Made by a program: the position numbers and the translations under genes
Part shown: positions 1,152-2,229 of the stretch, piece after piece
Layout: the number at the start of each line of letters is the position of its first letter
How positions within the stretch are numbered: position 1 is the first letter of the stretch
From: a virus
Lineage: Duplodnaviria > Heunggongvirae > Uroviricota > Caudoviricetes
Reading direction: 5' to 3' (one strand)
IMG/VR virus record: IMGVR_UViG_2698536379_000012
DNA length: 8,242 nt
Notes under the pieces: generated by a model
Seen by the model: only the letters and a program-made list of their open reading frames with translations
Databases searched by the model: none
Told to the model about the DNA's origin: nothing

Positions 1152-1156
1152 CTTTG

Positions 1157-1184
1157 TTGATTTTTCCCGAATCTGTGGTAAATT
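1157..1184 (+). promoter_or_regulatory. Candidate sigma70 late promoter (pR'-like) just after the Q-like gene
   Basis: -35-like TTGATT (1157-1162), 16-nt spacer, TGn-extended -10-like TAAATT (1179-1184). Position matches lambda pR' immediately 3' of Q. Sequence-only prediction. Confidence 0.3.
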
Positions 1185-1232
1185 TGCCCTAACGATGGGC
1201 GTTTTATGCCTGACGTTAGAAGATTTTTTACA

Positions 1233-1255
1233 CCCGTCGCCAGGCGGGTTTTTTT
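1233..1255 (+). terminator. Rho-independent terminator candidate (tR'-like)
   Basis: 6-bp stem CCCGTC/GGCGGG with one G-U wobble and loop GCCA (1233-1248), followed by seven T residues (1249-1255). Confidence 0.5.
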
Positions 1256-1358
1256 ATGACTGAAATCACGCCAGTACAGTAAACGCGCTGGTGGTTGTGA
1301 ATACCGGTCTTTCAGCTTGCTGGCTTTTTCGACAAGAGTTATTGGTGTGTCACGTTAA

Positions 1359-1751
1359 CCGGAAAAAGGAAAGTTTGAGAAACGCGATCTGGCACAGGCG
1401 GTGATTAACGCCGCATACCTGGTGGCCTGTGCAGATGGTGAATGTGAGGCTTCCTAGAAAGCGAAGATCGAACAGGTACTGCGTAATCAGCCAGCGCTGT
1501 CCGCGTTTACGTCAGAAATTAATGCGATTAGCGCAACCATTATCGGTCAGCTGGATACGAACTTTAAAATTGGTCGTCGTGCGGCGTTACGTGAGATCGA
1601 GGATGTGAAACACGATACGCGTGAAGCGGAAGATGTGCTGGATGTGGCGGTGGCCATTGCGGAGGCAGACGGCGAAATTGAGCCGGAAGAGCGCAAGGTG
1701 CTGGAAGAGATTGCCGGTGTTCTGGGGCTTCGTCTGGAGAATCACCTGTGA
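1359..1751 (+). pseudogene. TerB-family (tellurite-resistance TerB-like) gene remnant: no start codon, in-frame amber codon
   Basis: Frame 3 reads PEKGKFEKRDLAQAVINAAYLVACADGECEAS*KAKIEQVLRNQPALSAFTSEINAISATIIGQLDTNFKIGRRAALREIEDVKHDTREAEDVLDVAVAIAEADGEIEPEERKVLEEIAGVLGLRLENHL, with the duplicated acidic (A)DGE...EE TerB-type motif. An in-frame TAG sits at 1455-1457 and a TAA at 1356-1358 lies just upstream with no ATG before it. Confidence 0.55.
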
Positions 1752-1915
1752 CGGTAAAACTGCGCCTGGCTGTGGCTGCACTCCTGCTGTTTCTGGTGGT
1801 GATGGTGGATTTCACCAGCAGAATCATGTCGGTGCTGGCGGATGGGGGGCTGGTCTGCGGCATTGTGGTATTGCTGTGGCCGGTGATAAAAAGAAACAGC
1901 CTGCATAATGCTTGA
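1748..1915 (+). CDS. Small hydrophobic protein (55 aa, GTG start overlapping the stop of the TerB remnant)
   Basis: GTGA start/stop overlap at 1748-1751. Translation VTVKLRLAVAALLLFLVVMVDFTSRIMSVLADGGLVCGIVVLLWPVIKRNSLHNA is mostly hydrophobic (one or two predicted transmembrane helices). No homology check was possible, so it may be a non-expressed remnant. Confidence 0.3.
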   Translation: MTVKLRLAVAALLLFLVVMVDFTSRIMSVLADGGLVCGIVVLLWPVIKRNSLHNA

Positions 1916-2116
1916 TTTTTTTGTTTACTGTTTATTAAAAATACTACTGCATGGTGAATCCCCCTGTGCGGTGGGGCAATCAGCAACCAGGTATATGGGA
2001 TAATCGCGGATTCAGGTGCTGGTACTGAATTCACCGGGAGGCACCCGGCACCATGCTTTGCCACAAAAGTGTTATTTCTGTTTTTCTCAAACTATCATCG
2101 TTATCCCTTTATTTCC

Positions 2117-2143
2117 GGCTGCGCATGGCGCGGCCTTTTTTTT
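2117..2143 (+). terminator. Strong rho-independent terminator candidate upstream of the esterase gene
   Basis: 8-bp GC-rich stem GGCTGCGC/GCGCGGCC with one G-U wobble and loop ATG (2117-2135), followed by eight T residues (2136-2143). Confidence 0.6.
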
Positions 2144-2229
2144 ACGACCAGCCACTGGCAGATGGTCATCCTGTGATTTGATTCCGGTTCCGGCTTTTTA
2201 ACTCTGTTCCTGTACACGGGAGAAATTCG

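Follow-up and report, generated by a model that had tools for sequence, protein, structure and literature searches.

The locus analyzed here is the cargo slot at positions 1152 to 2229 of an 8,242-nucleotide (nt) stretch of virus DNA (IMG/VR record IMGVR_UViG_2698536379_000012), which is called the window throughout, at its full length. A close described counterpart is the stx slot of Shiga toxin (Stx)-converting phages, where the order is Q, the terminator tR′, tRNA genes, stx, the small RNA (sRNA) STnc100, the esterase gene nanS-p, and the lysis genes. The flanks of that slot are the same as those in the window. For example, the leader that follows Q in the Stx2a phage Stx2_EH1910 is 99.6% identical to that of the window, and in both, STnc100 and the esterase gene lie on the far side. 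The cargo, however, is not the same: the Stx-converting phages carry tRNAs and stx, whereas the window carries a broken copy of the gene pair tciAB. Other related phages also hold differing cargo between Q/tR′ and the block of STnc100 and esterase, namely, tRNAs and tciAB in Evi and JLK-2012; a helix-turn-helix (HTH) gene, a DNA methylase gene, tRNAs, and stx2AB in Stx2_EH1910; a methylase gene, a toxin-antitoxin-like pair, and tciAB in PPyecE_EH1910; and the gene for a 247-amino-acid (aa) membrane protein with a tciB-like gene in 434 and E2348/69. This agrees with a preliminary description of the window, made from its letters, which had placed a cargo slot between Q/pR′ and the lysis genes. 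The slot is very probably a variable "moron" slot that heads the late operon of a lambdoid Escherichia coli prophage.

The names tciA and tciB were given in the annotation of the phage P1 genome on the basis of homology to the ter operon and not of experiments. P1 and P7 carry the pair (with tciC) in the same order as the window, and from the same two families. However, the identity between P1 and the window/lambdoid pair is only 42 to 51% for TciA and 58% for TciB, whereas the lambdoid copies (JLK-2012, Evi, and PPyecE_EH1910) reach 96 to 98%. Moreover, the two P1 genes are about 60 nt apart, do not overlap, and lie elsewhere in the genome, in contrast to the GTGA overlap in the window. TciA has the same Pfam domain (PF05099) as the TerB of the terZABCDE cluster, which is associated with tellurite resistance, phage inhibition, and colicin resistance (Klebsiella TerB; PDB 2JXU). 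TerB is membrane associated, is proposed to act in surveillance of the membrane or in stress, and is also found in the defense systems Shango and Bunzi. The ter operon, Shango, and Bunzi are all multigene systems, whereas TciA is a stand-alone small phage protein without a TerC, TerD, TerZ, helicase, or ATPase partner.

Set beside these systems, the locus is an ordinary, well-documented case of a decaying moron, in a late module that is widely shared among prophages. In the slot equivalent to that of stx, tciA is dead, tciB is open, and the sRNA is a known prophage sRNA. All three are already named in public annotation or in the literature, and the locus is not a new kind of system. Its analysis matters little beyond correct annotation. 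The broken allele is carried by roughly a tenth of complete E. coli genomes, often in several copies, and the reconstruction given below, from nonsense mutation to deletion to drift, would be a tidy example of how a moron decays.

The slot holds a broken tciA gene coupled to tciB

The preliminary description had reported a TerB-like sequence with no start codon and an in-frame TAG, followed by a small hydrophobic open reading frame (ORF), and had read the two as a decaying module of TerB and a membrane partner. Every element that it described was present where it had been placed, and TerB followed by DUF3927 is the tciA-tciB pair of P1. The frame from position 1302 reads ...SR-stop-PEKGKFEKRDLAQAVINAAYLVACADGECEAS-stop-KAKIEQ...LENHL-stop. 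When the stop was masked, its translation matched Pfam TerB (PF05099) with an E value of 2.3e-11 (44.4 bits; cut-off, 24.4). The remnant was identical to the intact 143-aa TciA of phage Evi at 126 of 131 residues, and the codon differences between the two were 17 synonymous and 2 nonsynonymous. This means that tciA was inactivated recently relative to the divergence of these alleles. The intact Evi protein itself scored 60.2 bits against TerB and matched phrog_632 over 143 of 143 positions (E, 1.7e-69). Both acidic A-D-G-x5-E motifs of the TerB fold were present in the translation, as ADGECEAS (with the final E changed to a stop) and ADGEIEPEE, and it is the first of these that the TAG interrupts. 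The nearest solved structure to TciA was Klebsiella TerB (PDB 2JXU; E, 4e-8), which aligned with residues 14 to 137 and covered the second acidic motif.

Intact TciA (143 aa) and TciB (55 aa) were found in the same arrangement in Evi, JLK-2012, PPyecE_EH1910, and E. coli O145 RM9872. Compared with these relatives, the window tciA has 17 missing codons and a nonsense codon. The codon at the site of the TAG is GAG (Glu46) in every intact copy, including those of Evi, JLK-2012, and PPyecE_EH1910, the ancestral codon that the description had thought plausible. At its 3′ end, the remnant runs into the 55-aa hydrophobic ORF through a GTGA overlap at 1748-1751, where the TGA of tciA (1749-1751) and the GTG of tciB (1748-1750) share bases. 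With codons 1 to 17 and the ribosome-binding site deleted and a TAG at codon 46, the remnant, judged by its sequence, is a pseudogene of the TerB family and not a functional member. RefSeq annotation by the Prokaryotic Genome Annotation Pipeline (PGAP) gives the window copy the same status: it is named "tellurite resistance TerB family protein," flagged as a pseudogene for its "internal stop," and followed by a "DUF3927 family protein." In RefSeq, tciA is also annotated as a pseudogene in RM12579, 493/89, O103:H2 12009, and others.

The missing 5′ end and the probable order of mutations

No in-frame ATG, GTG, or TTG occurs between a TAA at 1356-1358 and the TAG, so the reported absence of a start codon stood. 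Its origin is not point decay. The gene is truncated at its 5′ end by a deletion junction, at which homology switched in both BLAST and MAFFT alignments (Table 1). Upstream of it, the near-identity to the post-Q leader of Stx2_EH1910 spans window positions 1101 to 1372 (locus L004 2450-2721), and positions 1228 to 1372 were 91% identical to PPyecE_EH1910 (locus L016 2280-2423). From 1370 on, the window matched tciA from codon 18. Because the two matches overlap by 3 nt, the junction suggests a microhomology-mediated deletion. In PPyecE_EH1910, the corresponding breakpoints are 2,578 bp apart and enclose a small HTH gene, a DNA methylase gene, and a toxin-antitoxin-like pair, as well as a terminator and the leader and first 17 codons of tciA; in Evi, the intervening cargo is three tRNA genes. 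ARAGORN detected no tRNA gene in the window, and the tRNA genes of related loci lie in the part that is deleted here.

The distribution of the alleles was determined in a set of 5,426 complete E. coli genomes with queries of 40 to 42 nt centered on the variant, so that the megablast seed needs the exact allele. The TAG allele (40-mer) was found in 576 genomes at 961 places, the GAG allele in the same background in 159 genomes at 164 places, and the deletion junction (42-mer) in 502 genomes at 638 places. In strain E2865, a full-length tciA with the same TAG, and with the ancestral Tyr37, lies downstream of an 82-type Q and tRNA genes. Therefore, the nonsense mutation most likely preceded the deletion. 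All of the junction alleles examined had Tyr37Cys, and O103:H2 12009 had Asp39Asn; both residues are conserved.

A probable sequence of events is as follows. First, an ancestral full-length tciA would have gained the Glu46-to-TAG change. Second, a microhomology deletion of about 2.6 kb would have fused the post-tR′ leader to codon 18, removing the ribosome-binding site, the start codon, the gene's own leader, and the intervening cargo (tRNAs, or a methylase gene and a toxin-antitoxin-like pair). Third, the further missense change Tyr37Cys would have followed.

The leader of intact tciA was also inspected in five related loci outside the window (L005 3005-3142, L002 2812-2950, PPyecE_EH1910 [L006] 2312-2450, L012 2246-2384, and L011 2244-2387). 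In each, a terminator is followed by a conserved leader of ∼150 nt with long complementary segments and a G-run that varies from 5 to 13 G. It had no Rfam match, and RNAalifold gave a long hairpin with 0 compensatory changes among the 5 near-identical sequences. The leader, which lies in the part deleted from the window, could be cis-regulatory.

Table 1. Coordinates of features in and next to the cargo slot (window positions)
Feature	Position	Strand	Details
Q, late-gene antiterminator	330-1151	+	273 aa; lambda-Q family with DnaJ-type zinc-finger region; Pfam PF03589, E 4.7e-50; RefSeq "antitermination protein" WP_000762928.1
Putative lambda-like late promoter pR′	1154-1196	+	From alignment with lambda, directly after Q
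Intrinsic terminator tR′ (putative)	1232-1256	+	ACCCGTCGCCAGGCGGGT plus T7; 7-bp stem; terminator scan
Post-tR′ leader remnant	1257-1370	+	Shine-Dalgarno remnant AAAGGA; ends at 1370
Deletion/recombination junction	1370-1372		3-nt AAA overlap; joins Q leader to tciA codon 18; homology switch in BLAST and MAFFT
tciA pseudogene (TerB family)	1371-1751	+	Codons 18-143 kept, 1-17 lost; Glu46 to TAG, 1455-1457; Tyr37 to Cys, 1428-1430
tciB (DUF3927)	1748-1915	+	55 aa; GTG start; GGAG Shine-Dalgarno 1735-1738; RefSeq WP_000216629.1
Putative sRNA promoter	1910-1939	+	−35 TTGATT 1910-1915 (overlaps tciB stop); 18-nt spacer; −10 TAAAAA 1934-1939
STnc100/PasD/EcOnc13-family sRNA gene (predicted)	1947-2143	+	Terminator stem 2117-2135; T8 2136-2143
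Intrinsic terminator of sRNA (predicted)	2117-2143	+	GGCTGCGCATGGCGCGGCC plus T8; terminator scan
DUF1737-SASA-DUF6645 esterase (nanS-p type)	2230-4163	+	Pfam; first gene after slot; two ORFs, 2230-3447 and 3426-4163

The second terminator and an STnc100-type sRNA

According to the preliminary description, the cargo was bracketed by two intrinsic terminators. Both were recovered by the terminator scan, their positions are kept in related phages, and their equivalents are annotated as terminators in phage 434. However, the second is not simply a bracket at the end of the cargo: it is the predicted 3′ end, and thus the own terminator, of an sRNA gene at about 1947 to 2143 that the description had not seen. 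In a cmscan search, positions 1923 to 2089 matched the Rfam family STnc100 (RF02076) over the full length of the model (1 to 206 of 206) at 99.6 bits (E, 2e-21), which is twice the gathering score of 47. The place was also the same, with the cargo (tciB or stx2B) on one side and the esterase gene on the other, and STnc100 followed tciB in 5 of 5 related tciAB loci, at 101 to 145 bits. In Stx2 phages, STnc100 lies 75 nt after stx2B and before the esterase gene, and its RNA was detected by reverse transcription-quantitative PCR in vesicle preparations of Stx-producing E. coli (STEC) (PMC12370729). When AsxR, AgvB, and other Rfam families were considered, only STnc100 passed in the slot; a minus-strand asX2 match (25 bits versus 70) was due to the terminator hairpin.

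Another set of relatives is PasD. PasD1 and PasD2 of the enteropathogenic E. coli (EPEC) strain E2348/69 are discrete 172- to 173-nt Hfq-dependent RNAs that are abundant without prophage induction and end at the terminator (Pearl Mizrahi 2021; Zhu 2026), and PasD2 (172 nt) was validated by northern blotting and by the ligation and sequencing of interacting RNAs (RIL-seq). EcOnc13 is the relative in enterohemorrhagic E. coli (EHEC). Zhu et al. independently concluded that PasD has a common origin with STnc100 and that both are linked to the esterase gene (bioRxiv 10.64898/2026.05.13.724894). In E2348/69, PasD2 is flanked by a DUF3927 gene and the esterase gene, which is exactly the position of the window sRNA. 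Alignment with PasD revealed a conserved upstream block, a 5′ stem, and the same terminator hairpin, GGCUGCGCAUGGCGCGGCC, and the mapped 5′ end of PasD2 (NC_011601 741157) aligned to about window position 1947. The putative promoter block (TTGAYT, 18 nt, TAAAAA) is conserved with E2348/69 and 434, whose −35 is TTGACT. The consensus fold consists of a closing stem (GCAUGGUG/CACCAUGC) that surrounds three hairpins, together with a pyrimidine-rich single-stranded tail and the terminator. The window sRNA was not nearly identical to PasD, and PasD2 itself scored 41.4 bits on the STnc100 model, just below threshold. On these comparisons, the window sRNA is a relative of PasD, not PasD itself, and is of the STnc100 type.

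An alternative is that the STnc100-like element serves the esterase gene as a structured 5′ leader or as an attenuator, present only in the late-operon transcript, with the second terminator acting as a regulatory checkpoint. The element always lies directly upstream of esterase or lysis genes, the promoter scan flagged nothing, the −35 of the window (TTGATT) is weaker than the TTGACT of E2348/69, and the PasD seed is absent. However, PasD1 and PasD2 are discrete Hfq-dependent RNAs that are abundant in uninduced cells and end at this very terminator, and STnc100 RNA is found in STEC vesicle preparations. The roles of leader and sRNA are also not mutually exclusive. We therefore consider a role as leader or attenuator alone unlikely and prefer an sRNA gene.

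The sRNA gene is not annotated in RefSeq, which is a caution for users of that annotation. In addition, RefSeq/PGAP has placed a partial pseudogene ("hypothetical protein," both termini missing) on the minus strand at 2110-2253, across the sRNA terminator and the start of the esterase gene; this call is probably spurious. In PPyecE_EH1910, a match to the AgvB (anti-GcvB) sRNA (96.5 bits; L006 3245-3306, minus strand) lies directly after STnc100, with no counterpart in the window.

tciB is open but probably drifting

The tciB product matched Pfam DUF3927 (PF13064) with an E value of 1.5e-16 (60.5 bits; cut-off, 25) and phrog_1470, "TciB-like," with an E value of 1.5e-29. It had every feature of this family: the profile match, a length within ∼50 to 55 aa, two hydrophobic segments (residues 5 to 22 and 26 to 47; grand average of hydropathy, +1.35), and a place directly after tciA. 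Although ribosomes would no longer arrive from tciA, tciB could still be translated from its own Shine-Dalgarno sequence.

Even so, tciB is probably drifting too, because its sequence contains a Val34Gly change and a run of six G that is frameshifted in sister strains. The change (T to G) is lineage specific, all other homologues having Val or Ala at this residue, and it creates the G6 run at 1844-1849. The run is G7 in strain 377323_2f and G5 in O103:H2 12009, and both changes shift the tciB frame; slippage during the decay of the gene is the simplest explanation. Taken together, the two genes of the module are probably decaying. The matches listed as H13 to H27, among which H14 was the one inspected, have a span of 1,077 bp. 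Because the O103:H2 12009 (G5) allele is of this length, it may well be common.

A separate observation concerns the partners of tciB. In 434 (locus L003 2138-3125) and E2348/69 (L015 830-1817), the tciB-like gene follows that for the 247-aa predicted membrane protein, which has no Pfam family. DUF3927 proteins may pair with alternative partners.

These data raise the question of whether the loss of TciA was selected rather than neutral, with tciB (and the sRNA) kept because it works alone or with other partners, so that the module is remodeled and not dying. For instance, the TAG allele is commoner than the GAG allele in the same background (576 versus 159 genomes), it is spread over the O55, O157, O103, O26, O145, O45, and O121 serogroups, the DUF3927 gene of 434 and E2348/69 is paired with an unrelated protein and not with TerB, and tciB is open in the window with a Shine-Dalgarno sequence of its own. 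However, this abundance may reflect hitchhiking with a successful late-region module of EHEC prophages. Furthermore, Val34Gly is nonconservative, sister alleles have a shifted tciB frame, among them the apparently common 1,077-bp allele of the O103:H2 type, and many intact tciA alleles persist in other backgrounds. Selected loss is thus quite unlikely. The same low standing applies to its fuller form, in which the broken allele would have spread through an advantage to EHEC/EPEC lysogens, TciB would be a free-standing small membrane effector with interchangeable upstream partners or none, and the locus would be a functional moron coupled to the STnc100 sRNA. Decay of the module remains the preferred reading.

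Coding capacity of the tciA remnant

The remnant might still give a functional product, either a 48-aa C-terminal fragment from a GTG at 1605 or a read-through product from a noncanonical start such as CTG 1389. An ORF at 1605-1751 does exist and would encode half a TerB domain, a PHROG family of such fragments exists as well (phrog_3920; E, 7e-36), and the remnant is 96% identical to intact TciA. However, the only Shine-Dalgarno-like sequence, GAGG, ends 2 nt before that GTG, and there is no conventional in-frame start before the TAG. Since inactivation, conserved residues of the motif have undergone missense changes (Tyr37Cys in the window and Asp39Asn in O103:H2), PGAP calls the gene a pseudogene, and the simplest reading of phrog_3920 is that its members are ORFs called on broken copies. 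A residual function is very unlikely for these reasons. The alternative that the TerB-like frame is a coincidental open stretch in noncoding spacer DNA has nothing beyond the absent start codon in its favor and can be dismissed, being refuted by the Pfam match, by the GAG of the intact copies, by the identity to TciA with its excess of synonymous changes, and by the GTGA coupling to tciB that is kept in all homologues.

The 48-aa GTG ORF at 1605-1751 is the C-terminal tail of the broken TciA and corresponds to an entire PHROG family, phrog_3920 (48 aa, "unknown function"). Caution is needed here, since the members of this "protein family" are probably ORFs called on pseudogenes of tciA.

Relatives and possible function of TciA and TciB

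By tblastn, tciA adjoins tciB in P1, P7, Pollock, Klebsiella phage 5 LV-2017, CharmingMan, lambdoid phages, and others. For tciA alone, the phage records number 131, among them those of jumbo phages of Erwinia and of phages of Vibrio and Pseudomonas. Both phrog_632 ("tellurite resistance") and phrog_1470 are placed by PHROG in the class "moron, auxiliary metabolic gene and host takeover." The locus is not a multigene TerB system, its neighbors being only Q, tciB, the sRNA, and the esterase gene. Membership in an antiphage defense system was also considered and rejected, as PADLOC returned only a subthreshold PDC-S48 match for TciA (E, 0.0035) and nothing for TciB, the esterase, or Q. Our best guess, by analogy with TerB, is that intact TciA and TciB probably form a membrane-associated TerB-type stress or exclusion module that is expressed as a moron.

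The late promoter, the first terminator, and expression of the slot

Q lies upstream of the slot, as the preliminary description had it. In lambda, TAAATT is the −10 element of pR′, and AACGAT is the −10-like element that causes the sigma70-dependent promoter-proximal pause where Q engages (qut). In the window, the post-Q sequence GGTAAATTTGCCCTAACGATGGG aligned to lambda GGTAAATTTGACTCAACGATGGG. The TAAATT at 1179-1184, preceded by TGG, and the AACGAT at 1191-1196 have the same N6 spacing as in lambda, and the candidate −35 is TTGATT (1157-1162; 16-nt spacer) or TTGTTG (1154-1159; 19 nt). Transcription would start near 1191.

The pR′-qut-6S-tR′ region of lambda is arranged in the same way, with the Q gene followed by both elements in the same register and then by an intrinsic terminator. 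By this analogy, the first terminator would be the tR′ of a lambda-like pR′, and the leader RNA of about 66 nt would be the counterpart of lambda 6S RNA and of StxS. The leader at 1191-1258, including the tR′ hairpin, folds at −21.3 kcal/mol (z, −3.0), and at the tR′ position of Evi and PPyecE_EH1910 the stem is kept whereas the loops differ. The window nevertheless departs from lambda in two ways: the lambda leader is 194 nt long compared to about 66 nt here, and the window Q, at 273 aa, has an added zinc-finger region. Short pR′-tR′ transcripts, including StxS, have been described as a class (PMC7547250), and a short terminated leader RNA would be expected from the window in lysogens. Beyond tR′, the leader of Stx2_EH1910 and PPyecE_EH1910 runs into a 65-aa HTH gene. 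A third terminator-like site, at 1185-1201, was rejected as a pR′ terminator because its left arm lies upstream of the predicted start; it overlaps the pause element.

From this arrangement, we infer how the slot may be expressed. In the lysogen, pR′ would fire and transcription would stop at tR′, about 40 nt after the pause element, leaving only the leader RNA. Upon induction, Q would modify the paused polymerase and make it resistant to terminators, and one late transcript would then run from the tciA remnant through tciB, the sRNA region, and the esterase gene to the lysis genes. No promoter is evident for the esterase and lysis genes themselves, so their expression should depend entirely on polymerase modified by Q. 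The preliminary suggestion that the downstream genes need antiterminated transcription is thus reasonable, drawing on what is known of lambda and on the similarity to its pR′. In the source strain, the sRNA, of the Hfq type, would probably be made from its own promoter and end at its own terminator.

Several results count against this account of the locus. First, the promoters are not clear-cut. The −35 of pR′ is ambiguous in the lambda alignment, and a generic sigma70 promoter scan flagged neither pR′ nor the proposed sRNA promoter. Second, the window has 3 terminator-like sites compared to 1.8 ± 1.2 in shuffled sequence, a count that is not above the shuffles. Third, the consensus fold of the sRNA (7 sequences aligned) has a compensatory change in only 2 of 34 pairs, and the minimum-free-energy fold of the single sequence was uninformative, departing from the structure in Rfam and showing no unusual stability (z, −1.2). 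Fourth, the PasD seed UGUGAG does not occur in the window, where the seed region is CCCUUUAUUUCC with ∼25 nt inserted; therefore, the targets of PasD cannot be transferred to the window sRNA. Fifth, the tciB frame is intact in the window, and its decay is read from sister alleles only. Sixth, the pattern taken as nonsense first and deletion second could also come from recombination between alleles. Finally, neither TciA nor TciB had a significant match in PADLOC.

Setting and flanking genes

Sequence comparison identifies the 8.2-kb window as the region for late regulation and lysis in a lambdoid E. coli prophage, near-identical to a prophage found in O55:H7 and O157:H7 strains. Its genes are, in order, rusA, Q, the slot, the DUF1737-SASA-DUF6645 esterase gene, DUF1378, DUF826, holin, a YdfR-family gene, lysozyme, an antirepressor-like gene, and Rz. 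Compared to the prophage of E. coli O55:H7 RM12579, the window has 3 substitutions, a 31-bp duplication, and a 4-bp deletion.

The deletion lies near 3411 (window 3405-3415), where GGACGGACGG has become GGACGG, and it splits a 645-aa esterase into two ORFs. The gene is intact (1,938 bp) in RM12579. The undeleted allele was present in 315 of 315 matching genomes, and the deletion was present in 0 of the 5,426 complete genomes.

The duplication is a tandem repeat at 120-181 (AAGCGCCGCCGTGACCTGGACAATATTCTGA twice), bounded by the 9-bp repeat AAGCGCCGC, and it frameshifts rusA. RM12579 has a single copy, and the duplication junction was covered by 0 records among the complete genomes. Either the duplication is unique to the source strain or it is an artifact of assembly.

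Finally, positions 6025-7017, between the lysozyme gene and Rz, hold an antirepressor-like gene (189 aa) together with a hydrophobic ORF of 49 aa and ∼270 nt of upstream noncoding sequence. This insertion is a second cargo site within the lysis cassette.

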